Source: a virus (Duplodnaviria > Heunggongvirae > Uroviricota > Caudoviricetes). Taken from it: 18,720 nucleotides of DNA. The position numbers were made by a program, and so were the translations under genes. Below, piece by piece: positions 142 through 18,720 of the stretch. The notes under the pieces are model-generated. The model ran no database searches, had not been told where the DNA came from, and saw only the letters and a list, made by a program, of their open reading frames with translations. Location: positions 1-18,720 of the IMG/VR virus record IMGVR_UViG_638341086_000012; one strand, given 5' to 3'. The number at the start of each line of letters is the position of its first letter. Within the stretch, counting starts at the first letter, position 1.

Positions 142-331
142 AGCACTTGCTCCTTTTCCGGAGAGGCGCTAACCTTTCACTTGTCAAGGTAATGCGGTTA
201 GGGCCTCGGTTAAACAGAGATGTTTTCCGGGGCCTTTCCACATCTGGCCTTCGGGTATTCCCTCCGACCATCAGCCGAAAGGCACCCGCGCGTAATCTAT
301 CGCTTTTTTGTTGCTCCGGCAATTCTGCCTG

Positions 332-592: not shown

Positions 593-786
593 AGCGACCT
601 CCCTTAACGCAGTGCTGATGTTATTCTAGGTCGTGCTGGCTATAATTCCAACTAACACTTCGTTTTAAGCGAATAGCAGATAGTCGAGTTATCATGTTAT
701 TAGCCAATAAATATACGTGGTAAAAGCTCTTTCTTCGATTTAAAATGTATCTGGATAGTAAATATCTTACGTTAAAGGAAATTGTT

Positions 787-1107
787 ATGGATTTTTTATC
801 TTCGGCGATACTTTCTGGCATAGTTTATGACATGCTTAAACATCATGTTTCGATTACTGCAACTTCAATAAAAGAAAAGTTAAAAAATTGGGTTATTGAT
901 GAGGCTGTAGCCCCTGCTTTAGCTAAAGAGCTTGAAAAACTGTCTTTGAACGATGAAATGAGTGAAATAGCAATTGAAAGAAAACTATTGGATAGTAGTG
1001 AAATTCAAAAAATACTCTCGTCTATAAAACCTCATGCAGCAACTGTCATTATTCAAAACCATAGTGGCACTGGTGATAATATTGGTGGAAATAAAATTAC
1101 GAGGTAG
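787..1107 (+). CDS. Hypothetical small protein (about 106 aa), first gene of the AT-rich cargo operon; no recognisable family
   Basis: ORF-track frame 745..1107. ATG at 787 is preferred because AAGGA at 775-779 sits 7 nt upstream; ATG at 745 has no SD. Very AT-rich relative to flanking phage genes. C-terminal motif IQNHSGTGDNIGGNKI recurs at the N-terminus of the next gene. Confidence 0.5.
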   Translation: MDFLSSAILSGIVYDMLKHHVSITATSIKEKLKNWVIDEAVAPALAKELEKLSLNDEMSEIAIERKLLDSSEIQKILSSIKPHAATVIIQNHSGTGDNIGGNKITR

Positions 1108-1112
1108 TGTCT

Positions 1113-3905
1113 ATGGATAACATTCATAGCTGCAGTTCAATTAGTCAAAATCATACCGGAACAGGCCATAATGTTGCTGGTAACTTAATTATATACAATA
1201 GTGATAATGTTGATTATGCGACTGAGTTAGCGATTGCTGTTTTAGTCGGTTGCTGGGATGAAAAAAATAATGGTGATATTGATATAATTACAAGCCTTAT
1301 TGGCGAGTCATATGACAGTTGGATTCGAAAATTAAGAATAATTGAAGGGATGCAAGATAGTCCTTTGATTCATGAGAGAGGTTCTTGGAGTTTTAAAGAT
1401 AGAATACAATCATTTCAAACGGTATCGTCAAGATTATTCGATGATCATTTGGATTTGTTTCGGACGACTGTTGTATCCGTTTTTAAAACTATCGACCCAC
1501 AATTTGAACTGGCACCTGAAGAGCGTTATGCAGCAGTAATTTATGGGAAGGTTTTACCACACAGCCGATTAATAAGGAAAGGACTATCCGAAGGGTTGGC
1601 ATTAGTTGCAACAAAGCAAGAGTTACTTACTAATTGCTCAAAATATAAAGGGCAATATTGCGCCTCAAGTGTGGTTAAAGAGGTTTTTTCGGCTTCTAGC
1701 TGGCAATTATGGGCTAGTACGCAAGATATTCAAGTTATGCTTGCGGAAAGTGCTCCTGACTGTTTTATCGACGAAGTGGAAAATGCTGCATCTCACCAAG
1801 ACAAGCCATTTGATTCACTTTTTGCACAGGAAGGTATCGGTGGTATTTCAGGTCGGAATTATATGACAGGACTGCTATGGGCTATTGAAGGATTAGCTTG
1901 GGCGCCTAACTATTTATCTCGCTCTTTAGTAATATTAGGGGAGCTGGATAGCCATGATCCTGGTGGCAATTGGGCTAACAGGCCACTTAACTCGATAATC
2001 AACATATTGTTACCATGGCTTCCTCATACTACAGCTGATATAGATAGACGTATTGCTGCTTTCAACGCATTGGCAAGGGAGTGGCCCGATACAGCATGGC
2101 GTGTTTTAGTTCAGTTGCTACCCAACAACACGCAAGTAACATCTGGCACACATATTCCAACTTTTAGAAACTTTATTCCTAACGGTTTTAATAAAAGGCC
2201 ATCGGGTGATGAGTACCGTACTCAGATTGAAATATACACTCAATTAACAATTGAATTGGCAAGTAAATCATCATTAAGACTTGTTGATTTAGTTGAAAAT
2301 ATTGGTAGATTAGCGCCATTTAAATTCGATGATGCAATTAAACTATTGTATGATTTTTCTAAAAAAACAGATAGTGCTGAATTGAAGTTAGCGGTGTGGG
2401 AAAAATGTTTAGAAGTTTATAACAAAAACAAAAGATTCTCAGGTGCTTATTGGGCAATGCAACCAGAACAAAATGAAAAAATCAAAGATGTTTCTACAGT
2501 CTTGAAGCCCGAAAATCCTATGCTTTATAGCAAGCGACTTTTTGCACAAAACAATTACTTCCTATTTGATGAAAATGGAAACTGGCGGGACCAAGAAGAA
2601 AGGTTGACAAAAGAACGAGGGCAATCAATATACGAAATATATGCTATTAATGGTATTGATGGAGTCTTAGAATTCTCTCTATCTATTGAAAGGCCTGAGT
2701 TTGTTGGTAGTAGCCTGGTCGCAGAAGATCTAGAAATTCCTTTAGATATACTGAAAAAACTTATTGTTAGTGATATTAAAAAGGAAAATTCTCTTGCTTC
2801 TGGTTATGTACAGGCTAAAAACTACAGAGAAGGAAAATCATGGGTGTTGACAGTTATTAATGACTGGAGTGCTCAAGAAAAGATTGCTTTTTTTCTTTTG
2901 TTACCGTTTAAAAAAGAAACATGGGATGCATTAAACGCTTCATTTGATGATTTTCCTTTCGAGTATTGGAAAAATACTCTTGTTAATGCATACAGCTGTG
3001 ATTCAACGGAAGAAATTTATTTTGCTATAGACTGCTTGATTAAAGTAGACCGTCCCTTGATGGCAATAGATTGTTTATCTAAAATTTTGCATATCGATAA
3101 TTCAGTTGATAGCAGTAAGGTTGTGCTTGCTCTATTGCAATCAATTAGAACCACAGAAAATATTGAGCGATTTGATATTCACTCATTTAATGAACTTGTG
3201 AATTATATTCAAAATGATAACACTGTTTCAGATGACGACTTAGTAAAGATTGAATGGGCATACCTACCTGTAATTAACAGGGGGGCTAATGATTCGTTGC
3301 ATCCTCAAGTATTAGAGAAAAAACTTGCAAGTGAACCCAGTTTTTTTTGTGAAGTCATTCAATATGCGTATCGATCAGAATTTCAAAAAGCAAGTAAAGA
3401 ACTATCTGAAAGTGAAATAAATATTGCCAAAAACTCACTCTATTTACTTGATGATTGGAAAAAGATTCCGGGTGTTGATGCTGAAGGCAAGTTTGATGTC
3501 AATGCGTTTAATAACTGGTTTGATTTTGTCCAAACAGAATGCGAAAAGTCAGGCCATTTAGATTTTGCTTATCATAGAATTGGAAGCATATTAATTTTTA
3601 GCCCTGCAAATGACGAGCATTGGATACTTCCAGAACTGGCCGAGTTTTTGAATAGACGTGAACTTGATAAAGTGCGTACTGGTTATAAGAATGCGATAAT
3701 AAATTCGCGTGGTGTCTACATTGTTGACCCAGAAGGTAAACCGGAATTGGAGTTGGCCCAACAATATCACACTAAGTCTGATGCAATGGAACTTCTAGGC
3801 TTTCATCGATTTGCCCGAATTCTTCGAGAGTTAGCTCATGAATACCAAGCGGAAGCTGAGTTGATAATAGAACAGCACAGTAAAAAAAAGATTGCTGAGA
3901 TTTAG
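1113..3905 (+). CDS. Large hypothetical protein (about 930 aa), AT-rich cargo; candidate accessory or defence protein of unknown family
   Basis: Uninterrupted 2.8-kb ORF (track 1107..3905; ATG at 1113 preceded by GAGG at 1101-1104). No Walker A, no obvious nuclease motif seen by eye. Sits between gpD and ogr, which are normally adjacent in P2, and on the opposite strand. Confidence 0.75.
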   Translation: MDNIHSCSSISQNHTGTGHNVAGNLIIYNSDNVDYATELAIAVLVGCWDEKNNGDIDIITSLIGESYDSWIRKLRIIEGMQDSPLIHERGSWSFKDRIQSFQTVSSRLFDDHLDLFRTTVVSVFKTIDPQFELAPEERYAAVIYGKVLPHSRLIRKGLSEGLALVATKQELLTNCSKYKGQYCASSVVKEVFSASSWQLWASTQDIQVMLAESAPDCFIDEVENAASHQDKPFDSLFAQEGIGGISGRNYMTGLLWAIEGLAWAPNYLSRSLVILGELDSHDPGGNWANRPLNSIINILLPWLPHTTADIDRRIAAFNALAREWPDTAWRVLVQLLPNNTQVTSGTHIPTFRNFIPNGFNKRPSGDEYRTQIEIYTQLTIELASKSSLRLVDLVENIGRLAPFKFDDAIKLLYDFSKKTDSAELKLAVWEKCLEVYNKNKRFSGAYWAMQPEQNEKIKDVSTVLKPENPMLYSKRLFAQNNYFLFDENGNWRDQEERLTKERGQSIYEIYAINGIDGVLEFSLSIERPEFVGSSLVAEDLEIPLDILKKLIVSDIKKENSLASGYVQAKNYREGKSWVLTVINDWSAQEKIAFFLLLPFKKETWDALNASFDDFPFEYWKNTLVNAYSCDSTEEIYFAIDCLIKVDRPLMAIDCLSKILHIDNSVDSSKVVLALLQSIRTTENIERFDIHSFNELVNYIQNDNTVSDDDLVKIEWAYLPVINRGANDSLHPQVLEKKLASEPSFFCEVIQYAYRSEFQKASKELSESEINIAKNSLYLLDDWKKIPGVDAEGKFDVNAFNNWFDFVQTECEKSGHLDFAYHRIGSILIFSPANDEHWILPELAEFLNRRELDKVRTGYKNAIINSRGVYIVDPEGKPELELAQQYHTKSDAMELLGFHRFARILRELAHEYQAEAELIIEQHSKKKIAEI

Positions 3906-4029
3906 TGTAGTGCTTGTAGTTTCGGAGAAATAAATCTTTGTTTATAAACATTTATAGTAACTACTGACATTGTTGCCGATTATAATTCGTCTTGGTGTAA
4001 GGCGGGTTACACTTGGCCAATCGGTGAAA

Positions 4030-4068
4030 GGCACAGAGCAAAACTCCAATTAGGTTTGCTTCTGTGCC
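4030..4068. terminator. Hairpin in the convergent intergenic region between the cargo operon and gpD; possible bidirectional terminator
   Basis: Inverted repeat GGCACAGAGCAAA (4030-4042) and TTTGCTTCTGTGCC (4055-4068), 13-bp stem with a one-base bulge and 12-nt loop. No strong T-tract on either side. Confidence 0.3.
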
Positions 4069-4115
4069 GTACGTAAGCATGCTAGCCCGTGTCTGAACTA
4101 ATGCATCCCAGTTGC

Positions 4116-5225
4116 TCACTCTGTTTCCGCTATCCATTCCGGGATTTTTGCCTCAAGCTCAAGCTGCGTGGTAAAACCGCTGTTATCAATGGTGTGCTCG
4201 GCTTTTGCAATAATCCAGTCCTGATTATCAATCTCGCTTTTAAATCCTGTTACCGTGCCATGCATTTCGGGGTAGAGTTCTGCACGTCCACGCGCCAGCG
4301 TGATGGAGAATGATGTGGCTCCGCGTTGTAGCTGCTGCCACTTTGCCGCCGCAGCGCGTCTTGCTGCCTGCTCGTTCTGATAAGTCTTGCGTAACACAAA
4401 CACATTTCCTTCCGCGCCTTCCATATAATCACCTTCACGGCTGCTGCTTTTCTCCTTTTTGGGTTTTGGCGGTTTGCGGCGTTTCACGCTGACTTTTTTC
4501 TTTTTCCCGTAATTAAGATCAAGCCAGTAGGCGCGTACCCCCGTATACGCCTCGCGGTCAGCAATACGGAACTGATGGCGATCGCCGCTGCTGCGTGTAA
4601 TGGCGAACGAGGGCAACGGCTGGCCCTGTGCGTTCACGCCACCACCTGGCATGATGAATAACAGATTGCCGCTTTTTACGGTGGTGATTGCGCCCAGCAT
4701 TTCCGCCATGCGCGTAAGAAAGGACATGTCGCTTTCTTCGGTCTGGTCGGCGTGGTCGATTTCGATATCCATCAGCATTTCGCTGATTTGCGGTTTCAGA
4801 CCATACCGATGAGCGATGGCGGATACCACACGCTCAACGGTCACATCATGCCAGGACACCTCACGTTTAACGTTAAATTCATCCCGAAAATCTGCGCTTC
4901 TGGCTGAAACAGTCAGCCTGTCCGGCGGTCCTTCGTGAGCGATTTCATCAACAATGTAAGTGCCTTTTTCTGTCAGCGGTTCTCCTTTCCAGCCAATGAG
5001 AACCGTCAGGCGCGCGCCCCGTGGCGGTAGCTGCAACTGACCATCTGCATCATCCAGCGTGATGGTGAGCTGGTCTGCTTCAAATCCCCGGTTGTCGGTC
5101 AGTGACAGGCTCATCAGGCGCTCTGCCACGCCTGACAGCGTTTTACCCTCCGCGAGAATATCAAAATCCGGCATTTTCACGGGGTCTGTGCCCTGACTGA
5201 GCAATTGCATGGTGGTGTCGGTCAT
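4116..5225 (-). CDS. D: P2 gpD-like late control / tail protein
   Basis: Translation (MPDFDILAEGKTLSGVAERLMSLSLTDNRGFEADQLTITLDDADGQ..., RLTVSARSADFR) matches P2 gpD as recalled. Start placed at ATG 5225 (MTDTTMQ...) because GGGAGGG lies 5-6 nt upstream; the ORF-track start at 5357 is an upstream extension. Confidence 0.88.
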   Translation of the reverse strand: MTDTTMQLLSQGTDPVKMPDFDILAEGKTLSGVAERLMSLSLTDNRGFEADQLTITLDDADGQLQLPPRGARLTVLIGWKGEPLTEKGTYIVDEIAHEGPPDRLTVSARSADFRDEFNVKREVSWHDVTVERVVSAIAHRYGLKPQISEMLMDIEIDHADQTEESDMSFLTRMAEMLGAITTVKSGNLLFIMPGGGVNAQGQPLPSFAITRSSGDRHQFRIADREAYTGVRAYWLDLNYGKKKKVSVKRRKPPKPKKEKSSSREGDYMEGAEGNVFVLRKTYQNEQAARRAAAAKWQQLQRGATSFSITLARGRAELYPEMHGTVTGFKSEIDNQDWIIAKAEHTIDNSGFTTQLELEAKIPEWIAETE

Positions 5226-5382
5226 CTGTTCCCTCCCTGTGCGGCATGGTCGCATGTGCGTGCAGAGGGGGGTACTGCTTTTTGTTGTCGCCGTGGCGGG
5301 AGAATGGCGCAGGAGTGAGATTACACGCGTGGTGGGTGATGATTGTTGCCGAATCATTTAACGGATACAAGGGGCTGAAGCT

Positions 5383-6567
5383 ATGAGTGAAACTCGTTTT
5401 CATGGTGCCCGTGTTACGGAAAATACCGACCTGGTAACAGCGATTAACGATGTTGATTCCAGCGTTATCGGTATCGTGGCAACGGCGGATGATGCGGACG
5501 CGAAGCTGTTCCCGCTGAACAAGCCCACACTGCTGACCCGCGTCAATGACGTGCTGGGAAAATGCGGGACAACGGGGACGCTTTATCGTGCGCTTAAGGC
5601 CATCGCAGACCAGGTGAGCACAAAGGTGATCGTCGTTCGCGTGGCTGAACACAAAGAAGAAGACGGAAAGACGCAGGATCAACTGGTTATCGGTGGTTCT
5701 GAGGATGACGGCAGCTATACGGGGATGTATGCGCTGCTTGTTGCAGAGCAGGATGAAAGCATCGGATACCGTCCGCGTATTCTGGCCGCGCCGGAGCTGG
5801 ACACGGAGGCTGTAACAAAATCCCTGTGCGTGATTGCAGGTAAACTGCGCGCGTTTGTGTATGCCTCATGTCACGGCTGTAACACGATGGCTGAGGCGAG
5901 TACCTACCGCCAGAAATTCAACGAACGTGAGGTGATGCTCTTATGGCCGGACTTCATCGCCTACAACCCAAAAAGTGGCAAAAACGAAACGTTCCCCGCG
6001 CCTGCCTATGCGTGCGGCCTTCGTGCGTACATTGACCATGAGCAGGGCTGGCACAAATCACTGTCCAACGTTCCGGTTAAAAATGTGCTGGGGATGTCGA
6101 GGCATGTGTTCTGGTCGTTGCAGGCCGAAGACAGCGATGCCAACAGCCTCAACAACAAAGAAATCACGACCATTATTCGTCGCAACGGGTTCCGCTTCTG
6201 GGGCAACCGCACACCGGAAACGAACGCCTACATCTTTGAGGTGTATACCCGAACCGCACAGGTGCTGGCTGATTCAATTGCGGAAGCGCAGTTTGAAACC
6301 ATCGACAGTCCACTGACGCCTGCGAACGTGAAGGATGTTATCAGTGCCATCAGGGCAAAACTGGATTCACTGGTTACTGCCGGGAAACTGATTGGCGCGG
6401 AGTGCTGGTATGACGTGGTGGATAACAGCACCACGAATTTATGTCAGGGGCGTGTGCGTATTCGCTACAAATATACGCCTGTTCCCCCGCTGGAAGATAT
6501 GGAGCTTTACCAGACGTTTACTGATGAATACTTTGAACCCGCATTTGCGGTGCTGGGAGGTGCCTGA
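5383..6567 (+). CDS. FI: Contractile tail sheath protein (P2 FI-like)
   Basis: 394-aa product with P2 FI-like blocks (FPLNKP, LRAF, YRQ, WPDF, DQEQGWHKSLSNV, IRRNGFRFWGNRT, YTPVPPLE). AAGGGG SD 8 nt before the ATG. Confidence 0.95.
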   Translation: MSETRFHGARVTENTDLVTAINDVDSSVIGIVATADDADAKLFPLNKPTLLTRVNDVLGKCGTTGTLYRALKAIADQVSTKVIVVRVAEHKEEDGKTQDQLVIGGSEDDGSYTGMYALLVAEQDESIGYRPRILAAPELDTEAVTKSLCVIAGKLRAFVYASCHGCNTMAEASTYRQKFNEREVMLLWPDFIAYNPKSGKNETFPAPAYACGLRAYIDHEQGWHKSLSNVPVKNVLGMSRHVFWSLQAEDSDANSLNNKEITTIIRRNGFRFWGNRTPETNAYIFEVYTRTAQVLADSIAEAQFETIDSPLTPANVKDVISAIRAKLDSLVTAGKLIGAECWYDVVDNSTTNLCQGRVRIRYKYTPVPPLEDMELYQTFTDEYFEPAFAVLGGA

Positions 6568-7079
6568 TGGCTGTGCCAAAACATCTTCGCTTTTTTACGC
6601 TGTTTGTGGATGGTGAAAACGAAGTGGGTAAGGTGACGTCCGTCACTCTGCCTAAGCTGACGCGCAAAACCGACAGCTACCGGGGTGGTGGCATGATGGG
6701 GGCGGTAAGTATTGATCTCGGTCTGGACGACTCCGCGCTTGATGCGAGTTTTGTTATGGGGGGAGCTGTTCGTGCGCTGTTCCTTAAATATGGCGGCACG
6801 ATTGACGGCACGCTGCTGCGTTTTGCGGGTGAATACTACACCGATGCAGAAAGCGATCTGTATGAAATCGAGATGCGCGGACGTGTGACGGAAATTGATA
6901 TGGGGGAAGCCAAACAGGGCGAAGCCACATCACACACTTACGCTGTCAAAAACACCTACTACAAGCTGAGCGTTAACGATCGCCCGCTGTGGGAAATCGA
7001 CCTGTTGAACCACATCTACCGGAAGGACGGCAAGGACATTGTGCCTGACCGTATCCGTTCCGCGCTTGGGCTTGGCTGA
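6567..7079 (+). CDS. FII: Tail tube protein (P2 FII-like)
   Basis: 170 aa; TLPKLTRKTDSYRGGGMMGAVSIDLG matches the P2 FII N-terminus. Start overlaps the FI stop (TGATG), and GGGAGG lies 8 nt upstream. Confidence 0.95.
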   Translation: MAVPKHLRFFTLFVDGENEVGKVTSVTLPKLTRKTDSYRGGGMMGAVSIDLGLDDSALDASFVMGGAVRALFLKYGGTIDGTLLRFAGEYYTDAESDLYEIEMRGRVTEIDMGEAKQGEATSHTYAVKNTYYKLSVNDRPLWEIDLLNHIYRKDGKDIVPDRIRSALGLG

Positions 7080-7134
7080 TAAGTAATATGCAGGCGGCGC
7101 AGTGCGTCGCCTCTGACTGAAAAGGAGACAACTG

Positions 7135-7509
7135 ATGAAAGACATCGATACTGAAACCCGGAATAACACCGTGGCGGATGATGTGACGGCAGGTGAGGAT
7201 ATGGCTGTCGAACGTGGCGTAAAACTGACCCGACCAATTGAGCGTGGTGGCGAAAAAATCACGTATGTGGAGATCACCGGGGCTATTGAACAGGCTGGAT
7301 CCCTGCGTGGTCTGTCGCTGTCTGATGTGCTGAATCTGAAAGCGGATACCATGTTCATGCTGTTGCCTCGCGTGACCTCGCCACGACTGGATGAAGTGAT
7401 GATTAAAAAAATGTCGTCACGCGATTTTATTCAGTTGTGCGCTGTGGCTGTAAATTTTATGAGCGAGCCAGACTCTGGCGCGAAGAGCGTGCAGGAGACG
7501 GCAGCGTAA
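7135..7509 (+). CDS. E: Tail assembly chaperone gpE-like (upstream frame of the E/E' pair)
   Basis: Position between tube and tape-measure genes; AAGGAG SD 7 nt upstream of ATG 7135; a -1 frame ORF overlaps its 3' end, as in P2 E/E' and lambda G/GT. Confidence 0.8.
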   Translation: MKDIDTETRNNTVADDVTAGEDMAVERGVKLTRPIERGGEKITYVEITGAIEQAGSLRGLSLSDVLNLKADTMFMLLPRVTSPRLDEVMIKKMSSRDFIQLCAVAVNFMSEPDSGAKSVQETAA

Positions 7510-7673
7510 TCACCCTAGTGTGCTTTGAGCACATCGAAGATCTGGTGGCAGATATCGCCGCCATTTTTAACTGGTCGCCCGCCGAAATCTTCATGATGAC
7601 GCCCGGCGAAGTGGTTAGCTGGCGTGAGCGGGCGGCACTTCGCAGCGGGAATGCAGACAATGAAGACTCTTGA
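7135..7673 (+). CDS. E+E': gpE+E' fusion made by programmed -1 ribosomal frameshift (coordinates span both frames)
   Basis: The -1 frame is open from 7407 to the stop at 7671-7673 and encodes ...HIEDLVADIAAIFNWSPAEIFMMTPGEVVSWRERAALRSG. Candidate slippery sites in the overlap are the A7 run at 7405-7411 and A AAT TTT at 7452-7458. Confidence 0.65.
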
Positions 7674-10467
7674 TATCCGGGTCGCTTTCAGCGCCGTTGA
7701 CAGGCTGACCCGGCCTGCCGAAAACGCCCGCCGCCTGATGGGGCAGTTTGGTGACTCCATCCAGCGAACGCAGGGGGCGATCAAAAATCTCGAGCGTCAG
7801 GCGCGTTCATTTGAGCGCGCCCGTGACGCTGTCAGTAAAGCGGATGCGGGCATCGTGAAAGCACGACGCCAGCTTAACGCCCTTAATCAGTTACAACGCA
7901 CGGGTACAGTGCTCAGCGAAAAACAACAAAAGCTGATGCAGCAGTTAAGCACCCGGCTTGAACGCCTGAATGAATCGCGCACACGGGAAATTCAGAAAAT
8001 GCGGGAGCTTGGCGGAGAACTGAAACGCCACGGCATTTCCCTGACAGGCAGCGATAACACCATTCAGCAGGCCATCAGACGCACCGAACAATACAACAAC
8101 CAGCTTGAACGCGAACGGCAGGCGCTTGCGCGTGTAACGCAGGCGCGTGAGCGGTATTCGCGCGCGCAGGAAACAGCGGGAAAACTGAAAACAGGTGGTG
8201 CGCTGGCAATTGGTGCGGCAGCGGCGGGCGGCTATGCTGCCGGGCGTTTTTTGCAGCCTGCGATCGGGTTCGGCAAAGAGATGTCCCGCGTTCAGGCACT
8301 GACGCGAATCGACAAAAACAGCCCGCAGTTTAAGGCGCTGCGTGAGCAGGCGTTAAAACTTGGCTCTGAAACACAGTTTACTGCGAGTGATGCCGCCAGT
8401 GGGCAGAGCTTTCTGGCAATGGCTGGTTTTACTCCGCAGGCCATTCAGGCCGCATTGCCCGGTGTTCTTAATATGGCGCTGGCAGGCGGCGTCGAACTCG
8501 GCGAGACGGCTGATATAGGCTCCAATATCCTCACACAGTTCAACCTGACAGCCGATCAAATGGACCGGGTGGGCGATACGCTGACAGCAGCATTTACCCG
8601 GACCAATACTGATTTACGCGCGCTGGGCGAAACCATGAAGTATACCGGTCCGGTTGCCGCAAAACTTGGTATCAGTCTTGAAGAAGCGGCGGCCATGGCC
8701 GGGATGCTTGCCAATAATGGTCTTCGCGGAAGCGATGCTGGCACGGCCATGCGCGCAAGTCTGTCCCGCCTTGCATCACCGCCAAAAGCTGCGGCTGATG
8801 CACTGAAAGAGCTGGGGGTGTCAGTTGCTGACGCCAGAGGCAAAATGCGCCCGATGGAGGATGTGCTGCTTGATCTCTATAAGGCGACACAAAAATACGG
8901 ACAGGTGGACCAGGTCTCCTTCTTCAAGGACATCGCCGGAGAAGAGGCGTTCGTTGGTTTGCAGACGCTTGTTGCGGCGGCTGGTTCAGGAGAGCTGCAA
9001 AAACTGACCAGAGAATTGCAGGGGGCAAGGGGAGAGGCCGATCGCGTTGCAAAAGTAATGGCCGATAATCTTGATGGGGACCTGAAAAATCTCGACAGCG
9101 CATGGGAAGGTCTTCGTATTCGCATCAGTGATCTGGTTGACGGTCCGCTGCGTTCTGTCACGCAGTGGCTCACGCGGATGCTTGAAAAAATCACCTCGCT
9201 GGCGCAGGCCCATCCGGTACTGACGCGCCAGCTACTGATAGCAGGCGGTGCGTTGCTGGCAATGACTGCAACGATTGGCTCGTTGTCGCTGGTTATTGGG
9301 GTGCTTTACGGGAAGCTGGCCACCTTGCGTATTGGTTTTGACATTCTTACCCGGTCAATGAATGTCGTCAGGGTGTTGCCTGCGCTATGGGGAATGGTGA
9401 CGGGTTCCGTTTCTTTACTGGGAGGCGCTATCGGGGCGTTGTTCAGTCCGGTTGGTCTTGTCGTTGCTGCGCTTGCCGGAGCTGCCGTTCTTATCTGGAA
9501 ATACTGGGATCCCATCAGGGCATTTTTTGCCGGGGTGTTCAGCGGGATTATGGAAAGGCTGACCCCGTTGCGCGAAACCTTTGAACGGTTTGGTCCTGTT
9601 TTTGACGCAATCGGAAGCGGGATCAGCCAGGTGTTTAACTGGTTTAAATCGCTGCTGTCACCGATGGAGTCCAGCAAGGAAACGCTGGATAAATGTACCA
9701 GTGCTGGCGAGATATTCGGTAACGTTCTTGGTGGAGCGTTACAGCTTGTTCTGACGCCTGCAAAAATGTTGCTGGATACGCTGGCGTGGATACTTGAAAA
9801 ACTCGGTGTGCTTCCGGATGAAGCGGAAAGGGCGCGCAAGAAAATCGAAGACGCACAGCGTGCGGCCATTCTTCAGGACAAGGTTGCTCTGTTTCAGGGA
9901 GACATTGCGAAAATCAATCCGCCAAAGCCTGTAGAAAATGGCAATGGCACCGGAGGTGATAAACCCAAAGACAATAAACCGCTCACAGACAGCAATATCG
10001 GTACGCTGCGCAGACTAAGCAAAATTGCTGATAACACAGGTAAGCTGGTTGATGAGACGAAAAAACGCATTGGCCCCGGCGATATTGTCTTTAAGAACCT
10101 GCCCCGCGCACTTGCTGTTCGTGGGGAGTGGCAGGAGCGGAAGATTGCGCAGGTCAGTAAGCCTGCCCCCGCAATTAATATCACCCCCGTGGTTCCGGCT
10201 CCGCTGCCTCCGGCGCTGGTCCCTGTTGTTGCGGCCAGCACCCGCCCGGTGGCGGAGGCCATACGATCACCAGTAGCATCAGTGCCTGCAACTTCCCGTA
10301 ACCGGGAGCCTGTTGCCTCCGGATTTGGTGGTGAAATTCATGTTCATCTGCATAACGTTGTTACGCAGAATCCCCACGAACTGGCGAAACTGGTCGGTGA
10401 AATGGTCAGGGCAGAAATGGAACGGCGCGCCCGTGCCGGGCGTGGCAGTTTTTACGATAAAGATTGA
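7660..10467 (+). CDS. T: Tail tape measure protein (P2 gpT-like)
   Basis: About 935 aa, coiled-coil-rich N-terminal part, central hydrophobic glycine-rich segments, Pro/Ala-rich C-terminal part; immediately follows E/E'. Start uncertain: ATG 7651 or 7660 (ORF-track frame opens at 7624). Confidence 0.9.
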   Translation: MKTLDIRVAFSAVDRLTRPAENARRLMGQFGDSIQRTQGAIKNLERQARSFERARDAVSKADAGIVKARRQLNALNQLQRTGTVLSEKQQKLMQQLSTRLERLNESRTREIQKMRELGGELKRHGISLTGSDNTIQQAIRRTEQYNNQLERERQALARVTQARERYSRAQETAGKLKTGGALAIGAAAAGGYAAGRFLQPAIGFGKEMSRVQALTRIDKNSPQFKALREQALKLGSETQFTASDAASGQSFLAMAGFTPQAIQAALPGVLNMALAGGVELGETADIGSNILTQFNLTADQMDRVGDTLTAAFTRTNTDLRALGETMKYTGPVAAKLGISLEEAAAMAGMLANNGLRGSDAGTAMRASLSRLASPPKAAADALKELGVSVADARGKMRPMEDVLLDLYKATQKYGQVDQVSFFKDIAGEEAFVGLQTLVAAAGSGELQKLTRELQGARGEADRVAKVMADNLDGDLKNLDSAWEGLRIRISDLVDGPLRSVTQWLTRMLEKITSLAQAHPVLTRQLLIAGGALLAMTATIGSLSLVIGVLYGKLATLRIGFDILTRSMNVVRVLPALWGMVTGSVSLLGGAIGALFSPVGLVVAALAGAAVLIWKYWDPIRAFFAGVFSGIMERLTPLRETFERFGPVFDAIGSGISQVFNWFKSLLSPMESSKETLDKCTSAGEIFGNVLGGALQLVLTPAKMLLDTLAWILEKLGVLPDEAERARKKIEDAQRAAILQDKVALFQGDIAKINPPKPVENGNGTGGDKPKDNKPLTDSNIGTLRRLSKIADNTGKLVDETKKRIGPGDIVFKNLPRALAVRGEWQERKIAQVSKPAPAINITPVVPAPLPPALVPVVAASTRPVAEAIRSPVASVPATSRNREPVASGFGGEIHVHLHNVVTQNPHELAKLVGEMVRAEMERRARAGRGSFYDKD

Positions 10468-10479
10468 GGAGTCATGGCC

Positions 10480-10968
10480 ATGATGATGATCTACGGCATG
10501 TTTGTTTTTGAGCTGCGTACGTTGCCGCATCAGCAGTTACAGCAAAACAAAAGCTGGCGGCATGTGAAAAATGAACGCGTTAACCGTTCAGCAAGCTGGC
10601 AGTATATCGGTGCAGGTGATGATCGCATCGTTCTTTCTGGTGTGCTTTATCCTGAAATTACAGGTGGTGAAGTGTCGCTGTCGCTGCTGACCACGCAGGC
10701 GTATACAGGACGCCCCTGGCCTCTGATTGATGGCGTCGGGCAGATTTACGGCATGTATGTCCTGACCGGAACGAATACGACCCGTTCCGAGTTTGATCGC
10801 TACGGTAAGGCGAAAAAGATAGAATTTTCACTGACTCTTGAACGCTGTGATGAGGATTTGCGGGAGCGCCTGCAATCCTCATCGTTCAGCGATATGTTGT
10901 CCGGCTTCAAAGATAAGGTGACATCATCCCTTAATAGTGCGGCCAGCTCAGTTAAGGGGCTGCTCTGA
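10480..10968 (+). CDS. U: Tail protein gpU-like
   Basis: MMMIYGMFVFELRTLPHQQLQQ...WRHVKNERVNR parallels P2 gpU (MMMVLGLFVFMLRT...). GAGGAG at 10466-10471 favours ATG 10480 over the ORF-track ATG 10474. Confidence 0.9.
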   Translation: MMMIYGMFVFELRTLPHQQLQQNKSWRHVKNERVNRSASWQYIGAGDDRIVLSGVLYPEITGGEVSLSLLTTQAYTGRPWPLIDGVGQIYGMYVLTGTNTTRSEFDRYGKAKKIEFSLTLERCDEDLRERLQSSSFSDMLSGFKDKVTSSLNSAASSVKGLL

Positions 10969-11044
10969 TTTAACGTATGTCGCCAATTTCCTGATGAAGG
11001 TGACTGGCGACTTGCTGTTGTATGTCCTTCTCAGAAAATTGTTT

Positions 11045-11073
11045 TTGAATAACAAATAACAGGATTTTATAAT
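11045..11073 (+). promoter_or_regulatory. Near-consensus sigma70-type promoter for the acetyltransferase cargo gene
   Basis: TTGAAT (11045-11050), 17-bp spacer, TATAAT (11068-11073); then AAGGAG (11113-11118) and GTG start at 11125. Confidence 0.5.
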
Positions 11074-11124
11074 CTCTTAACCTTATAACATGTGTGGTCT
11101 GAAATAATAATTAAGGAGATTTTC

Positions 11125-11697
11125 GTGCTGTCTTACTTAATGGCAATTCACTTTGTTTTATTTGGGAAGTCTACTAATTTAAAAAACTTCTGGAAACATG
11201 AAGTAATTCGGCGAAAACGTATGGATATCTGGAGGCTTTTAAGAGAGAAAAAGCAGCGTAACCGGAATTTCCTTTTCTGGTGGCGGTTGGCTAACGAAAT
11301 GTATATTAATGGTAATAAATTACATAAGAAAGCAGCCAAAAAGTTAAACAGTAAAATAATTAACAAATTTGGTTGTGAAATAGGATTGGGAGCAAATATT
11401 GGAAAAGGGTTAACAATTCCCCATCATGCTGGAATTGTTGTTCATTTTGCTGTTGATGCGGGTGAAAATCTGGTATTACGACAGAATACTACCATTGGAC
11501 AGATAGATGGTGACATGCCTGGTTCAAGAGTGAAAATTGGTAGTAACGTTGATATCGGAGCTAATTGTTGCATCATTGGATTGTCACGTAAAATTGGGGA
11601 TAATGTAAAAATAGGTGCAATGTCTTTTATAAATAAAGATATACCATCAAACTGCACATATATAACTAAAAAGAGTGGTGTTGTATTGTATAAATAG
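11125..11697 (+). CDS. Hexapeptide-repeat (left-handed beta-helix) acyl/acetyltransferase, CysE/WcaB/LacA-like; AT-rich cargo gene
   Basis: Repeated [LIV]-G-x-x-x-x hexapeptide pattern (IGLGANIGKGLTIPHHAGIVV, KIGSNVDIGANCCIIG, KIGDNVKIGAMSFI). Strongly AT-rich versus neighbours. ORF-track frame opens at 11092; GTG 11125 is chosen for its SD. Confidence 0.75.
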   Translation: MLSYLMAIHFVLFGKSTNLKNFWKHEVIRRKRMDIWRLLREKKQRNRNFLFWWRLANEMYINGNKLHKKAAKKLNSKIINKFGCEIGLGANIGKGLTIPHHAGIVVHFAVDAGENLVLRQNTTIGQIDGDMPGSRVKIGSNVDIGANCCIIGLSRKIGDNVKIGAMSFINKDIPSNCTYITKKSGVVLYK

Positions 11698-11704
11698 AGT
11701 ACAT

Positions 11705-11745
11705 AAAGCCATCGATATTTCTGTCGATGGCTTTTTCTTTTTATT
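11705..11745 (+). terminator. Rho-independent terminator after the acetyltransferase gene; the same hairpin lies just past the stop of gene G on the other strand
   Basis: Perfect 11-bp stem AAAGCCATCGA (11705-11715) / TCGATGGCTTT (11724-11734), 8-nt loop, followed by TTTTTCTTTTTATT on the plus strand. Confidence 0.65.
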
Positions 11746-12325
11746 GTGGGGCGACTGGCCACTCAACATCCGCTGCTACTGTTGTATCAACACGATTCAA
11801 CAATACCCGATATGTCTTCCATGCAGCCAGTAACGATGCCTCTTCCTCCGTCGCAATATCCAAATCTACGGCATCCTGAAGTGGCGCAATATGCTCACTG
11901 GCTACCTGCATCAGGCTGTTTTTTGTTTCTTCTGCCTCCTGTACCCGAAACAGTTTTTCTGCTTCTGCATCTTTCACCCAGGATGTGCCGTTCCACTTCT
12001 GACACTCTCCATCCGGCGACAACCAGGTAACATTTTCCGGTAACGGACCGAGTTCAGAAATAAATAACGCGTCCCCTGATGCCACGTCATAAACAGTTTT
12101 ACCCCGATGGTCTTCAACGAGATGCCACGATGCCTCATCACTGTTGAAAACAGCCACGAAGCCAGCCGGAATATCTGGTGGTGCAATATCGGTACTGTTT
12201 GCAGGCAGACCTGTATGAGGTGGAATGTATGCATCACCTTCCCCAATAAATTCATTAGTTCCGGTCAGCAGGTTATAAATTTTTATGGTCCGTGATTGTT
12301 CACTCATTCTGAAATCCATGTTCAC
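11741..12325 (-). CDS. G: Tail fibre assembly protein / chaperone (gpG/Tfa family)
   Basis: C-terminus ...[34 protein letters not shown] is the conserved Tfa C-terminal signature as recalled; about 190 aa. GTG at 12325 or ATG at 12319. Confidence 0.85.
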
Positions 12326-12327
12326 CT

Positions 12328-13230
12328 CTACTTAATATCAGAGACAGAATATTGTTTATTGAGCGTATGGGTAGGAGTACCAATAACGATGCTACTTCCG
12401 TGGCTATGTGCGCCAGAGGTGACATTACCTACGGGATTTTCTGGATTAATCCGGTGTATATGCGAACCAGGGCGAAAACGGTTATTAGCCTGATGTTGTA
12501 TCAGTACATCATCAGCCTGATGTTCAGGGTTAATACAGATTTGCCCGGAACGAGAGCAACACGTCCGATAATCGCCGCATCCAATATATTTAGTATCCGC
12601 ATAACGGCAAACGGAATTACCCGGACAGTATGCATATGTGCCAAATACTGCCGACTGGCGAGATTGTGCGTATTCCCAGTTAATTGATTCTGTTTTTTTA
12701 TTAAAGTTATCCCATGCCTGCTTCATCTGTCGGGCAACACTTTCAAACGGCACCTGACCACATCCGGCCCCCATTGCAGGGAATACCACTGTTTTTATTT
12801 TCATGTCTGTCGTTGCGTTTTTATTGTGCTGAAAGATGGCAAGCAGAGCGGCCCAGGTTGCGTTATATACAGCGTCTGTTCCGTCAATTGTCAACGGAAC
12901 ACGCATTGTTGGCGCATGTACCAGCCAGGGGTGATGATTATGCCCCGTTTCAATGACAAATGCAGAACCTACAGGCTGTTCGCCGAGATATTCACGAAGA
13001 ATATGATTCTGAACGCGGGACTGTAACTGAGTACCGAAGAATGCGGTAATGGCGGCATCAACGCCACCATCCATCAGGCCGAAACTATTTGCCGCACTTA
13101 CCATGCAGTCAAATTCTCTGATTGTTTCAAATGGCTTTCCGACAATATTCACACTATCTGCATTTGCAAATACCTGCTTAAATGCTTCAGCCATTTCTGT
13201 TACTGGTGCAGAAAGAATGAGCGTAATCAT
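12328..13230 (-). CDS. Macro-domain (ADP-ribose-binding / hydrolase fold) protein with a Cys/His-rich C-terminal extension, inserted between H and G
   Basis: Macro-domain motif blocks seen by eye: [60 protein letters not shown]-terminal 120 aa contain CPGNSVC...[16 protein letters not shown] and His-rich [11 protein letters not shown] overlaps the H stop (ATGA at 13227-13230); GAGG SD 5 nt upstream; stop 3 nt before the G start. Confidence 0.8.
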
Positions 13231-15053
13231 GCAAGCCTCACAATATAGTTAAATGCGATGTTTTTTACGGTGTTTTCTGCGTTACCCGTAGCGTTAACGG
13301 TGATGGTATGCCCGTGTGAACCTATCGCAACGGAGTGTGTGTGTGCGCCAATTCCTACCGTATGAGTGTGTGCGCCAATATTTACTGTGTGAGAGTGCCC
13401 CCCTGCGTTACTTGTTTTTCCAGTGCCAAGTCCTGAGTTATAACCAGCCGAAACACCATTACCTGCGCCAGTGTTGCCAACAGGAATATTGTGTGAATGA
13501 TCCCCGGCGCTATTCGTGGTTTTAGTGCCATGGTTAAATGAACTGGACGTCTTGGTGCCGTAGTCAAATGATGATGTGGTTTTTGTCCCCAAGTCCGTAC
13601 TGGACGCGCTGGCACTGTGGGAGTGTGATTTAATGCCGTCCTGTTCCTGAGATAATACGGCCCGACCACTGGCGGGTTTGCCCTTAATCGTCCAGCCACG
13701 CATATCAGGGATCACACCAGACGGATAAGCGACTGCAAGCAGGGGATAGACTGTTTTATCAAAAGTCTGCCCCTGCATAACGGTATAGCCTGTAGGCACT
13801 GAATCAGAAGGCCACGGTATCGCCGCACCTACCGGAAATGAATCTTGTGGCGTCCATGGTGTCCAGTCACCCGTTGAGTACTGGCTGCGGGTATAGCTTC
13901 TGGATGTGTCATACACATAGTAAATCTGTGTTATCCCGGCATTTTTAAGCACAACCAGTGTACCCGCAAAATTCTCCGGGTATTTCAGCGCTGCGCTTGT
14001 ATTGGCATTCAATGGCTGATGGTACAGCCCCGGTGTTTTGTAATTATCCAGATTCTGATTTGCACCAATCTCAATACTCTGGTCGTTAAAAATATCCTGC
14101 GATGTAACATTGACATCATTGGCTAGTGATTTGCCATTAACCTTACGTCCAGAGGGCACACGCCCGTTTGCATTGTCATTAGCGGCTTTCACCGCTTTCG
14201 GAGTCGCGGCAAGCGTTTCAGAATCACTGTTAGTGACGCTACTGAGCTGGACTATTCCTTTTCGTGCCGTCGTGGCGTCCTGTGCGGTATATTTCCCGTT
14301 AGCAAGGTCATAGGCTGCCTTTACCGCCTTTGGTGTTGCCGCCAGCGTTTCTGAATCGCTGTTGGTGGCGCTACTGAGCTGGGCTATTCCTTTTTGTGCC
14401 GTCGTGGCATCCTGAGCGGTATATTTCCCGTTAGCAAGGTCATAGGCTGTCTTGACCGCTTTCGGCGTTGCGGCCAGTGCTTCAGACGTGCTGTTAGTGG
14501 CGCTACTGAGTTGAACAAAGCCTTTTGCGGTCAGCGAGGCGTCCGGGTGACGTCGTGACTGTTCATGTTCTTTCAGTTTGTCATTCACGTAATCCACTGT
14601 GGCCATCACCATGGTGTTATCCACGGTAAGCGCCACGGTGGCAGTGCTGGATACGGTCAGAATGGTGCGAAATGTTTGTGCACGTCCGGACCCCTCGGCA
14701 ACGGTTGGTTTGTAACTTTCGGCAGTATTGCCCACCGCGATTAAATCGCCGTGCTCATCAAATACACCAATTTCCCGGATCCAGAATCCACCCGTTTCAG
14801 GAGGAATAACCAGCTCCGCAATAATGCGGTTCTGATGTGTTGCGTCCAGGATGACGCGATTAACAGTATGTCGCCACACCTCATGCACCAGACGGGTCTG
14901 CTTACTGTCTGGTGTGGGCAACGTGCCGCCACCGTCGCCCACGGCCATGTGAGTCAGGCGGACAGGATTACCATCTGGCGCGGCTGCCTGAGCTAATTTT
15001 TTGGCACCAGTATCAGTGATAATGGTTTTAAATTTACGTGTTGTGGTACTCAT
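13227..15053 (-). CDS. H: Tail fibre protein (P2 gpH-like)
   Basis: N-terminus [26 protein letters not shown]...MAVGDGGG...HEVWRH...[10 protein letters not shown] matches P2 gpH; internal [36 protein letters not shown] repeats; C-terminal HxH-rich tip ([33 protein letters not shown]) ending [11 protein letters not shown]. Confidence 0.95.
14160..14528 (-). repeat. About 2.8 tandem copies of a 132-bp (44-aa) coding repeat inside tail fibre gene H
   Basis: DNA segment containing ...ggtatatttcccgttagcaaggtcataggctg... recurs with a 132-bp offset (14286 vs 14418). Encodes KG(F/I)[40 protein letters not shown](Q/R). Confidence 0.85.
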
Positions 15054-15055
15054 GC

Positions 15056-15586
15056 TTAATCGTCCGGATAAATGGTAATGACTTCACCGTCGTAAGTTGC
15101 TGCCGCCGCGAAAATATCCCCCGGGATCTCCTGAATGATATTCAGCCCTGTCATGTGGCGGCTGACCGGGCGGGCATCAGCAATCAACCGCTCCATTTCC
15201 AGATACATTTCCTCCGTCACGCCACTGTCCAGCGTGCCGACTTCAACGGTAAATGTTCCCGGTTCTCCGCCGAACTCCCACCACTCAGACACACGAATGA
15301 GGTATCCCAGCGGCTCAATGGCCCGGCGCAGTGCGCTGATGGTCCCTTTGTGTCGGTGTATCAGCCATGCATCACGAATCACCTGTCGCTTTGTCTCTTC
15401 CGGCCAGTTGCGATCCCAGCGGTCAACGGAAAATGCCCAGGCGAGATAAGGCAGCAGATGCACCGGGCAGGTGTCCGGCGACCACAGCGTGTTGAGGTCT
15501 ACCGGAATGTCTGTAATGCGCGTTCCGACAGCTTCGGCACAACGCATGAAATTGCTGGCTGATGGCGGTAACAGTGAATTACTCAT
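15056..15586 (-). CDS. I: Baseplate assembly protein gpI-like
   Basis: [20 protein letters not shown]...[14 protein letters not shown]...[19 protein letters not shown] matches P2 gpI. ATG 15586 (176 aa, overlapping the J 3' end) fits the P2 gpI N-terminus; ORF-track start 15619 is an extension. Confidence 0.9.
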
Positions 15587-16475
15587 TACGCCCACCTTCG
15601 CTGATGGTGAATGACTCACAGCGCGCCGCCTGTATGTCGCTGATGGCCATATTTTGTGTGGGTTCGATTATCTCCACGCGTTGCACACCGTGCACATGCA
15701 GTGCGGCAGCAATGGCTGACAACGCCACGTCCTGACCGATAAGCCCCTGCTCAGACAGCCACTTCCTGAACGACGATTCCGCCGCGGCCAGAATAGGTTC
15801 GGATTCCGGGCCGGGGTAAAAGTACAGTTTTGCATTCAGCCGCCATGTCACGATTCTGGCACTCTGTACGGTCAAGCGGTCGGCCACCGGGCGGGTATCC
15901 TCTGCATTCAGAACGGCGCGAACGGTATTAAGCAACGCCTCCGTTGCCGTGCCGTCGCCCTCAGTGGACAGGATGGAAACCGTCACGTTGGCCGGAGACG
16001 GGCTGATGGCCCGCGCATCGCGTACCAGACCGCTGGCGCTGCGGGCAAAATACTCGTATGCACCTGACGGGCCAGCAACACTCAGACCGTCATATGCCCG
16101 TTGCGCCCGTAGTCTCAGCGAGGTGTCACTTTCCATCACTGCGTCGGTGGTATCCGTTGCCGGAGTGATAACCAGGCGCTTTGTGTTCATATTGCCCGCG
16201 AGGTTGTCCAGGTCTGTCCCGGCGCTGTGGCTTAGCATGCAGGCGCGTGCACCCTCATTGACCCGCTGGCGTAACAGCATTTCACGAAAAGACATGGTTT
16301 GAGCGATAACGTTCAGGGGTTCCGATTCCAGCTCCAGCGCGGCGGAGACGGCTTCACGCTGTTCGGCAGGATAGGACGCAATCATCATGGCCTTTGTGTC
16401 AGCCAGAATTGCCTCAAAATCAGGCTCCGCGATGATGGCGGGTTCCGGTAACTGGGAAAGGTCAACAGCAGGCAT
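15579..16475 (-). CDS. J: Baseplate assembly protein gpJ-like
   Basis: 298-aa product in the conserved position between W and I, with gpJ-like sequence; SD-like GAGAGAG upstream of ATG 16475. Confidence 0.9.
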   Translation of the reverse strand: MPAVDLSQLPEPAIIAEPDFEAILADTKAMMIASYPAEQREAVSAALELESEPLNVIAQTMSFREMLLRQRVNEGARACMLSHSAGTDLDNLAGNMNTKRLVITPATDTTDAVMESDTSLRLRAQRAYDGLSVAGPSGAYEYFARSASGLVRDARAISPSPANVTVSILSTEGDGTATEALLNTVRAVLNAEDTRPVADRLTVQSARIVTWRLNAKLYFYPGPESEPILAAAESSFRKWLSEQGLIGQDVALSAIAAALHVHGVQRVEIIEPTQNMAISDIQAARCESFTISEGGRNE

Positions 16476-16478
16476 GAT

Positions 16479-17900
<1,422 letters not shown>

Positions 17901-17950
17901 CCACTACAAGGTGCTTAAGAGTGAAGTTTCATTTAGATGAACTTAAAAGA

Positions 17951-18283
17951 ATGGCAACGCTCGATAATTTTGCGCGTTTTCTCAATGAGTCGTCTACGAA
18001 TGAAAAATGTTTGTCGTGTGGCGATACGGATATGTACATGTATTTGACGAATATTGTTGAGGTGGGGCCTGAGCCGAAAACTGCTGAGGAGTGTGATTTA
18101 GGCACTTTTGTTATGCTTGATTACATCGGTCCATTTACTGGGTATCCGGGATATGAGGGACATGATCGGGAAAATATCCATAACTATGAATTCCGACTTA
18201 CCTGTAACAGATGTGGGTTTGTTCATCGTTACTCGGCCCGGGCCTTTATGAACTGGGTAGGCAAGCTGGGTGATGAGAAGTGA
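17951..18283 (+). CDS. Hypothetical small Cys-pair (possible zinc-ribbon) protein; start uncertain
   Basis: ORF-track 17897..18283 begins inside the IS right end; first plausible start is ATG 17951 (MATLDNFARFL...). Two CxxC pairs (CLSCGD, CNRCG). No recognised family. Confidence 0.45.
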   Translation: MATLDNFARFLNESSTNEKCLSCGDTDMYMYLTNIVEVGPEPKTAEECDLGTFVMLDYIGPFTGYPGYEGHDRENIHNYEFRLTCNRCGFVHRYSARAFMNWVGKLGDEK

Positions 18284-18720
18284 TGGCAGAGAATGTTGCA
18301 CATATTTCGCGGTTCAGAAAAAAGAAAGAGAATGCCTATAATGTATCCAACAACCAAGTAACAGGAAGTGGTAATGATGGAGGTGATGGCATGAATGACG
18401 ACCTTGAACGGCGGGTCAGTTGCCTGGAAAGTGATGTGACTGAAATCAAAAACAACCTGATTACTCTCACCACAAGAAGCGAATCCTTTGCTACCAAATC
18501 TGATGTACTGGAGATTCGCGAAGGGTTGAGGCTTGAGATGGCAGAATCGCGCCAATCCCTGAAGTCTGAGATGGCTGATTTACGCCAGTCTCTGAAAGTT
18601 GAGATGGCTGAGCATCGTACTGAACTTCAGAAATCATTTGCAAATCAGACTTGGTTACTCACAGGTATTGTCCTGTCTGCGATGGCCGTGCTTGTGGCTG
18701 TGGTTACTGTTATTAAGTAA
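18283..18720 (+). CDS. Coiled-coil protein with a C-terminal transmembrane anchor; tentatively XhlA-like lysis-associated architecture
   Basis: ATG 18283 overlaps the upstream stop (TGATG). Three tandem 11-residue repeats (EMAESRQSLKS / EMADLRQSLKV / EMAEHRTELQK) precede the hydrophobic tail WLLTGIVLSAMAVLVAVVTVIK. Stop at 18718-18720. Confidence 0.55.
   Translation: MAENVAHISRFRKKKENAYNVSNNQVTGSGNDGGDGMNDDLERRVSCLESDVTEIKNNLITLTTRSESFATKSDVLEIREGLRLEMAESRQSLKSEMADLRQSLKVEMAEHRTELQKSFANQTWLLTGIVLSAMAVLVAVVTVIK

Follow-up and report, generated by a model that had tools for sequence, protein, structure and literature searches.

The window analysed here, an 18,720-nt stretch of DNA spanning positions 1 to 18,720 of IMG/VR virus record IMGVR_UViG_638341086_000012 (Caudoviricetes), carries the tail genes of a P2-like prophage and ends, beyond an insertion sequence (IS), in two small open reading frames, ORF1 and ORF2 (Table 1). 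ORF1 begins with a GTG codon (its first ATG is at 17951), and its TGA stop shares one base with the ATG of ORF2 in a TGATG overlap. At 43% and 45% GC, respectively, the two genes are more AT-rich than the tail genes (51–54%), to which they are unrelated. In all of these respects, the initial annotation, which had described a small Cys-pair protein tightly coupled to a coiled-coil, membrane-anchored one, holds good. It had also proposed that the pair might belong to a different element, and here our analysis leads elsewhere. It is virtually certain that the P2-like prophage to which the tail genes belong also carries ORF1 and ORF2, as cargo (a “moron”), and the right flank of the window, which had looked anomalous, is not a second element.

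The 820 bases that follow the IS are present in 85 of 5426 complete Escherichia coli genomes, always in single copy and always on the chromosome. Most carriers have int directly upstream, and in 24 of 25 records, among the matches listed, the opening bases of the match fall under an annotated phage integrase. Carriage this low disposes of the idea that these are housekeeping or core genes; the pair is accessory, as the initial annotation had supposed. In E. coli SE11, an intact P2-like prophage sits between ihfA and btuC and has the gene order ...J W V S R, lysis, capsid, P Q, cargo, A, ..., C, int, ORF1, ORF2, btuC, where C is a helix-turn-helix (HTH) repressor and int the integrase. The int stop lies at 20018 of the SE11 locus (L002) and the ORF1 start at 20021, with 2 nt between them. 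The pair closes the lysogeny operon of an intact phage (repressor C, integrase, ORF1, ORF2) and is placed between int and the attachment site (att).

The att repeats confirm this placement. The ihfA terminator hairpin, GGCCGCTCTGCGGCCTTTTTTCTTT, forms a 25-bp direct repeat with copies at 502–526 and 20946–20970 of L001, the locus of strain Z1323HEC0393 (NZ_CP148357.1) to which the window is nearly identical. The left copy lies just past ihfA, and the right copy lies 125 bp past ORF2, which ends at L001 20820. When the empty site was rebuilt by joining the outer flanks over one repeat copy, it was contiguous, at 100% identity, in 5120 of the 5426 genomes. The repeat is therefore the att core, which places both genes within the prophage; the pair is present in 85 of the ∼300 E. 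coli genomes in which this att site is occupied. Further, a circular, apparently excised (episomal) P2-like Klebsiella genome, CP052639.1, has the order HTH–int–pair–D/tail genes, and so the pair travels with the phage. It is also found on 20 IMG/VR viral contigs. A search of GTDB species representatives with an alignment of close members found no related loci, and a collection of isolated phages gave no DNA match for the pair, no tblastn match for ORF2, and four weak Klebsiella matches to ORF1.

The same results bear on the other origins first suggested for the pair, namely that it is what is left of a lysis cassette, or else a small separate island joined to the truncated prophage. The lower GC content of the pair relative to the tail genes could be read in this way, as could the coiled coil and C-terminal transmembrane segment of ORF2, which recall XhlA (PF10779), a short lysis-associated protein of the PBSX/SPP1 type. 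This likeness is one of architecture only, as had been noted at the outset. The best-matching family member, from Rahnella, aligns to positions 2–58 of the 67 in the XhlA profile with E 3.6e-5, scoring 24.3 bits against a gathering score of 34.7, and window ORF2 gives no match to the Pfam model at E ≤ 1; its match to a spanin-like PHROG is insignificant (E 0.035). Moreover, the neighbors of the pair are int, the repressor, att, and btuC rather than a holin or endolysin. Intact relatives have their P2 holin, endolysin, and LysB/C genes between X and R, ∼16 kb from the pair, across the genome and on the opposite strand (L002 2439–3706), and in the window these are deleted. Beyond position 18720, where the initial annotation had suggested looking for holin or endolysin genes, there are none, but instead 125 bp, the att core, and then btuC. 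We have therefore rejected the separate island on the att repeat and empty-site test, and the lysis remnant on position, strand, neighbors, and lack of an XhlA or spanin match; either origin is now hardly credible.

How the tail genes came to adjoin the pair can be read from the junction. The match to the intact SE11 prophage breaks off at window position 16649, within gpW, and the alignment to SE11 int (L002 19041–20018) picks up again at AGGTGCTTAAG, position 17909, which is the first base past the right inverted repeat of the IS. Thus, an IS3-family element has replaced ∼18 kb of the prophage, beginning within gpW and ending 10 nt short of the int stop codon. Lost with this segment are the genes for lysis, capsid, and replication, as well as those for the repressor, the integrase, and the remainder of the baseplate. 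The IS, of 52% GC, is bounded by imperfect 26-nt terminal inverted repeats, TGTAGTGG...TTGGCCAC. The loss was probably caused either by adjacent deletion mediated by the IS or by two IS copies recombining. It fused the tail genes to ORF1 and ORF2, and the W–IS–ORF1 junction is found in 1 of the 5426 complete E. coli genomes. The window corresponds to L001 788–20820 of Z1323HEC0393, minus a second IS3 copy present in that strain. We conclude that the P2-like prophage of the window is IS-truncated and immobilized, and that its right flank is its own surviving integrase end. As a minor point, AGG stands on both sides of the IS (16648–16650 and 17909–17911), though the flanks derive from gpW and from the end of int, which in SE11 reads ...CTAGGAGGTGC; the match could be coincidental (1 in 64) or could mark where the IS first inserted.

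Table 1. Features of the window and of the loci compared with it. Positions refer to the window unless a locus is named.
Feature	Position	Strand	Evidence or remark
ORF1, 120-aa cytoplasmic four-cysteine protein, predicted zinc ribbon	17921–18283	+	Invariant Cys, phrog_4293 match
ORF1 Cys codons	18008–18010, 18017–18019, 18203–18205, 18212–18214	+	
ORF2, 145-aa predicted tail-anchored coiled-coil protein	18283–18720	+	phrog_9415 match, AlphaFold2
Candidate ORF2 internal start (GGAGG 18379–18383, 7 nt, Met37 ATG 18391–18393)	18379–18393	+	
Beta-layer motif FATKSD, ORF2 residues 69–74, in coiled coil	18487–18504	+	PMC4786415 consensus
33-bp tandem repeat, 2.4 copies, 11-residue EMAxxRQSLKx units	18533–18611	+	Tandem Repeats Finder
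Predicted ORF2 C-terminal transmembrane anchor, residues 124–144, one residue beyond	18652–18714	+	Kyte-Doolittle
Remnant of gpW baseplate gene	16479–16649	−	Left deletion junction; NZ_CP148357.1 annotation: partial baseplate assembly protein
IS3-family insertion sequence, orfA/orfB with programmed frameshift	16651–17908	+	Inverted repeats; NZ_CP148357.1 annotation: IS3 family transposase
P2-type integrase 3′ end, 10 nt, TAA stop at 17916–17918	17909–17918	+	Alignment to SE11 int
HTH repressor–int–pair–chromosome contexts	SE11, episomal Klebsiella genome, L005, L006, L034, L035, L036/L037		
Repressor–Flk_N protein–(extra genes)–pair–int–pgsA contexts	L003/L004, L008/L009, L032, L033		
Flk_N protein gene	L003 7002–7631, L008 5350–5979, L032 3348–3977		
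hok/gef family toxin gene	1–141	−	
Gene for 106-aa HetE-N protein	787–1104	+	Pfam PF20701 match, E 7e-39
Gene for 930-aa protein	1113–3902	+	
Tail block FI–FII–E–E′–T–U	∼5383–10968	+	
Serine acetyltransferase gene	∼11125–11697	+	
Genes G–H–I–J–W′	11741–16649	−	
Macro-domain protein gene	∼12328–13230	−	

The company that the pair keeps in other phages bears on its role. We compared 13 distinct contexts, of which 12 are repressor-led operons and one is different. All but one of these 12 are P2-like repressor–integrase operons, the pair being upstream of int in 4 and downstream in 7. The exception is a lambdoid Rahnella prophage (L007), in which position 6001 is both the end of a CI-like HTH_3 repressor gene and the start of the pair; the repressor gene is divergent from a P22_Cro gene, and the pair is followed by a gap and then by a RecE/RecT early-left operon. 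This is the position where lambda carries rexA and rexB. The feature common to the contexts of the pair is the repressor operon, rather than integrase or lysis genes. We therefore view the pair as mobile cargo of temperate-phage lysogeny operons that is presumably made in the lysogen, where it would act, since the cassette rides with the repressor. Two further observations concern these operons. First, SE11 has just one strong terminator-like site beyond the pair, the att hairpin with its T-run, and integration restores the rho-independent terminator of ihfA while giving the int–ORF1–ORF2 operon of the phage an identical one. Second, P2-like prophages of the Citrobacter/Hafnia type encode a 209-aa Flk_N (PF27202) protein between the repressor and the pair. 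It has no PADLOC match and has a C-terminal hydrophobic tail of its own, making it a second tail-anchored protein of the same operon.

Within these contexts, the two genes stay together. An ORF1-like gene followed by an ORF2-like gene is found in every locus read, with an overlap of 0–29 nt in 10 of 10 loci aligned. Both genes are under purifying selection. When E. coli alleles are compared with the Salmonella alleles that occupy the same btuC site, the ratio of nonsynonymous to synonymous substitution rates (dN/dS) is 0.13 for ORF1 and 0.16 for ORF2 (0.06 for the neighboring integrase), and thus neither is a chance open reading frame. Even over the first 36 codons of ORF2 the ratio is 0.22, indicating that this N-terminal extension is translated.

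ORF1 differs from WP_000668483.1 by the single change Q116L and matches phrog_4293, a family of unknown function, with E 8e-28. Its relatives are few; only 13 were returned at E ≤ 0.001 when 1.84 billion cluster representatives were scanned exhaustively with HMMER, and a profile search returned 23 proteins, of which all organism-named matches are from Enterobacterales. In a 15-member alignment reaching down to 21% identity, both CxxC pairs (C30/C33 and C95/C98), G99, and W112 are invariant. Because the four cysteines are invariant, ORF1 is predicted to be a zinc ribbon, and its sequence indicates an orphan of that class, with no significant match in Pfam, NCBIfam, PADLOC, or PDB sequences. Its AlphaFold2 model (predicted local distance difference test score 77.6, predicted template modeling score 0.69) places a beta-ribbon core between two N-terminal helices and a helix at the C-terminus. 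Foldseek searches with this model found nothing in the PDB at E < 0.1 and no significant match in BFVD, where the best was an unnamed 87-aa protein at E 0.01; other matches showed mostly weak likeness to TFIIS/Rpb9-type ribbons, plus unrelated folds. Rip1, which ranked second in Foldseek, was rejected as a relative (E 1.2, template modeling score 0.15); it also differs in being a single pore-forming protein located between terminase genes.

A four-cysteine zinc-binding motif, together with the adjacency of the pair to int in most P2-like contexts, could suggest that the pair assists in integration, excision, or the lysogeny decision, with ORF1 as a zinc-finger DNA-binding regulator like Ogr/Delta in P2/P4. 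This seems very improbable. The lambdoid pair follows a repressor and not an integrase; in P2-like phages the pair may stand on either side of int, and most such phages do without it. Moreover, we rejected ORF1 as an Ogr/Delta-type zinc finger, as its comparison with the Ogr of the same prophage gives E 7.9 and Pfam yields no match, and a membrane-anchored partner is hard to square with a recombination factor.

That partner, ORF2, is identical to WP_000829983.1 and matches phrog_9415, also of unknown function, with E 1e-42. Its 45 relatives come from E. coli, Shigella, Salmonella, and Citrobacter. In the AlphaFold2 prediction, which was made for the monomer only, residues 1–36 are disordered and a single continuous helix runs from residue 37 to 144, into the transmembrane segment. 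The sole hydrophobic segment is at the extreme C-terminus (the best 19-residue Kyte-Doolittle window, 2.65, starts at residue 126), and a hydrophobic C-terminal tail is present in homologues at 10 of 10 loci aligned. The helical part contains a tandem repeat whose copy number differs among alleles, with fewer or more units in the alignment. Ahead of it lies a short motif, FATKSD, that fits the consensus [aliphatic]-A-T-K-[polar]-[DE] save that the first residue, Phe, is aromatic; K72 and D74 are invariant. This motif is that of the beta-layer, which has been seen at the stalk start of DUF1640 membrane proteins (Hartmann et al., PMC4786415). The GCN4-(M)ATKDD-GCN4 constructs, which are trimeric, align in register with the ORF2 family profile (E 2e-4 to 1e-2), as does 6h9l. 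Since every beta-layer construct in that study is a trimer, ORF2 is probably a trimeric alpha/beta coiled coil by analogy.

The comparison with DUF1640/CCDC90-like proteins (PF07798; the MCUR1–CCDC90B family) extends beyond the beta-layer at the start of the stalk to the C-terminal transmembrane anchor. PF07798 matches occur in 5 of 14 members of the ORF2 family, the best with E 4.2e-4 and all under the gathering score; window ORF2 itself scores 10.9 bits against a cutoff of 33.5. The analogy is not exact because no head domain was detected in ORF2, whose N-terminus consists of ∼36 disordered residues, and because ORF2 has an obligate zinc-ribbon partner and a setting in phage lysogeny operons. 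In our view, the most fitting description of ORF2 is a tail-anchored alpha/beta coiled coil, DUF1640-like and probably a trimer, that belongs to neither Pfam family, DUF1640 or XhlA.

ORF2 may also exist in two forms. Past its first ∼36 residues, which are variable, come a Gly-rich tract and Met37, both invariant. Five of 7 divergent loci have GGAG(G) 4–8 nt before the Met37 codon, and a 109-aa short form is called in many database entries. It is possible that an internal start at Met37 yields this short isoform beside the 145-aa long one, although the indication is weak because runs of glycine codons readily yield GGAG(G) motifs. A promoter-like site, TTCAGA–18 nt–TATAAT (10 of 12 matches), is found at 18313–18342 on the plus strand, within the 5′ part of ORF2 and 49 nt before the Met37 codon. 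It is a consensus match of a kind no commoner here than in shuffled sequence; as a candidate promoter, it could drive the short form without the deleted Pc promoter.

A possible long/short dual start recalls holin/antiholin pairs, and this is one of several points that could be taken to favor a toxin–antitoxin-like addiction module, in which ORF2 would be a membrane-damaging, XhlA/holin-like toxin restrained by ORF1, and the prophage would thereby be stabilized. The genes are small and tightly coupled, one family member has the sub-threshold XhlA match given above, and the pair is intact in a prophage that has lost its integrase and most of its other genes. ORF2 is a putative toxin in this scheme, however, and there is no homology to known toxin–antitoxin families. 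Moreover, a hok/gef gene is already present at the opposite end of this prophage. An addiction module is thus improbable.

The nearest known systems include RexA/RexB of lambda, exclusion genes that are transcribed together with the repressor. Both cassettes consist of one soluble and one membrane partner, are non-essential and patchy in distribution, and lie directly downstream of a repressor gene and co-directional with it, in the Rahnella prophage in the very same slot. In P2-like contexts, the pair is within the C–int operon. The analogy is not one of homology. No sequence or fold likeness was found in Pfam, NCBIfam, PADLOC, or PDB sequences, or by Foldseek, which was run with the ORF1 model only. 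RexB is a polytopic four-helix membrane protein and RexA has ∼279 aa, whereas in our pair the membrane partner is a predicted single-pass tail-anchored coiled coil and the soluble partner a predicted 120-aa zinc ribbon. The pair also bears the marks of cargo, with low GC and patchy distribution. The same is true of the conversion and defense cargo of P2 itself (old, tin, and fun/Z), which is likewise non-essential, low in GC, and variable. The pair lies away from the classical GpA–GpQ and tail-gene hotspots and matches no known defense model. Nevertheless, a 2026 survey (PMC13586616) identified the int–att and int–primase intervals of P2-like phages as minor defense hotspots, which hold 3% and 8% of P2 systems, and the first of these is where the pair resides.

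From these comparisons, we propose that the pair serves to exclude or abort infection by other phages. Translational coupling would produce ORF1 and ORF2 together. ORF2 would have its C-terminus in the inner membrane, with the trimeric alpha/beta stalk and the disordered N-terminal tail in the cytoplasm, and ORF1 would dock on it as a soluble zinc-ribbon protein. In the lysogen, the two would then constitute a membrane-tethered module, with ORF2 as anchor or effector and ORF1 as its soluble partner. We regard the joint proposition, that the pair is prophage cargo of a lysogeny operon and that it acts as such a module, as about evenly balanced, a judgment that blends membership with function. 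The anti-phage function by itself, suggested by analogy to RexAB, is possible but somewhat more apt to be wrong than right. A fuller version is that the pair is an undescribed two-component anti-phage system, in which a trimeric tail-anchored ORF2, in long and short forms arising from a conserved internal start, and a soluble four-cysteine zinc-ribbon sensor, ORF1, would block or abort superinfection at the inner membrane, on its cytoplasmic face, and which would move among the lysogeny operons of P2-like phages, lambdoid phages, and a Klebsiella siphophage; this we offer tentatively, as a conjecture at the lower end of that judgment.

Several results weigh against an exclusion role. First, a search of PADLOC-DB v2 gave no defense-model match for the pair (best E 0.041 and 0.0075, to unrelated models), and neither above-threshold Pfam matches nor matches to solved or predicted structures were found. 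The proposed role is thus drawn from position and analogy. Second, in the literature on the accessions, on DUF1640/XhlA in prophage defense, and on P2 hotspots, we found no study of the ORF1 or ORF2 proteins. Third, in the thirteenth context, that of the Klebsiella siphophage, the pair is not beside a co-directional repressor. Fourth, a mirror-tree comparison for co-evolution of ORF1 and ORF2 gave mixed values, with a Pearson correlation of 0.66 and a Spearman correlation of −0.12. Fifth, the promoter of the operon, the repressor, and the integrase are deleted in the window, where only the promoter-like site described above remains, making expression of the pair from this particular prophage uncertain.

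The pair has no nuclease, nucleoside triphosphatase, or other typical defense domain, which could be taken to favor a role in lysogenic conversion or host modulation with no part in exclusion, for example as a membrane scaffold that alters host physiology or the envelope, or that stabilizes lysogeny, as DUF1640/MCUR1-type proteins do in organelles. The lysogeny-operon position fits such a role equally well, and the beta-layer motif, stalk, and anchor of ORF2 are like those of DUF1640-type scaffolds. Oppositely, no specific host target can be named, and the pair is found in the classical places of exclusion genes, the rexAB slot and the P2 int–att hotspot. We consider host modulation of this kind unlikely, while giving it serious attention.

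Whichever role applies, the pair has the look of an ordinary prophage cargo cassette, uncharacterized and a candidate exclusion system. The homology and structure searches that the initial annotation had proposed bore fruit only in part, as the cassette is seen by two PHROG families of unknown function and has no recognition in Pfam, NCBIfam, PADLOC, or structure databases. If its role in exclusion is real, the cassette would represent a new sensor/effector architecture in prophage-encoded immunity, and a bacterial DUF1640-like membrane stalk would gain a function.

Other features of the window prophage deserve brief mention. Located between the att core and ogr, the hok/gef gene is within the bounds set by att, and with ORF1 and ORF2 at the opposite end the prophage thus has cargo next to att on either side. 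Two genes of ∼35% GC are inserted between ogr and a truncated gpD/VgrG-like gene, one encoding the HetE-N protein and the next a 930-aa protein that has no Pfam or PADLOC match; together they may be another cargo or defense candidate. The tail block FI–FII–E–E′–T–U is on the strand opposite to G–H–I–J–W′ and to D/ogr, and hence is inverted with respect to the canonical late-gene order of P2. In NZ_CP148357.1, the extra IS3 copy lies at one edge of this inverted block (L001 11855–13163). The low-GC serine acetyltransferase gene occupies the Z/fun position, and the macro-domain protein gene stands between the tail fiber gene H and the assembly gene G.

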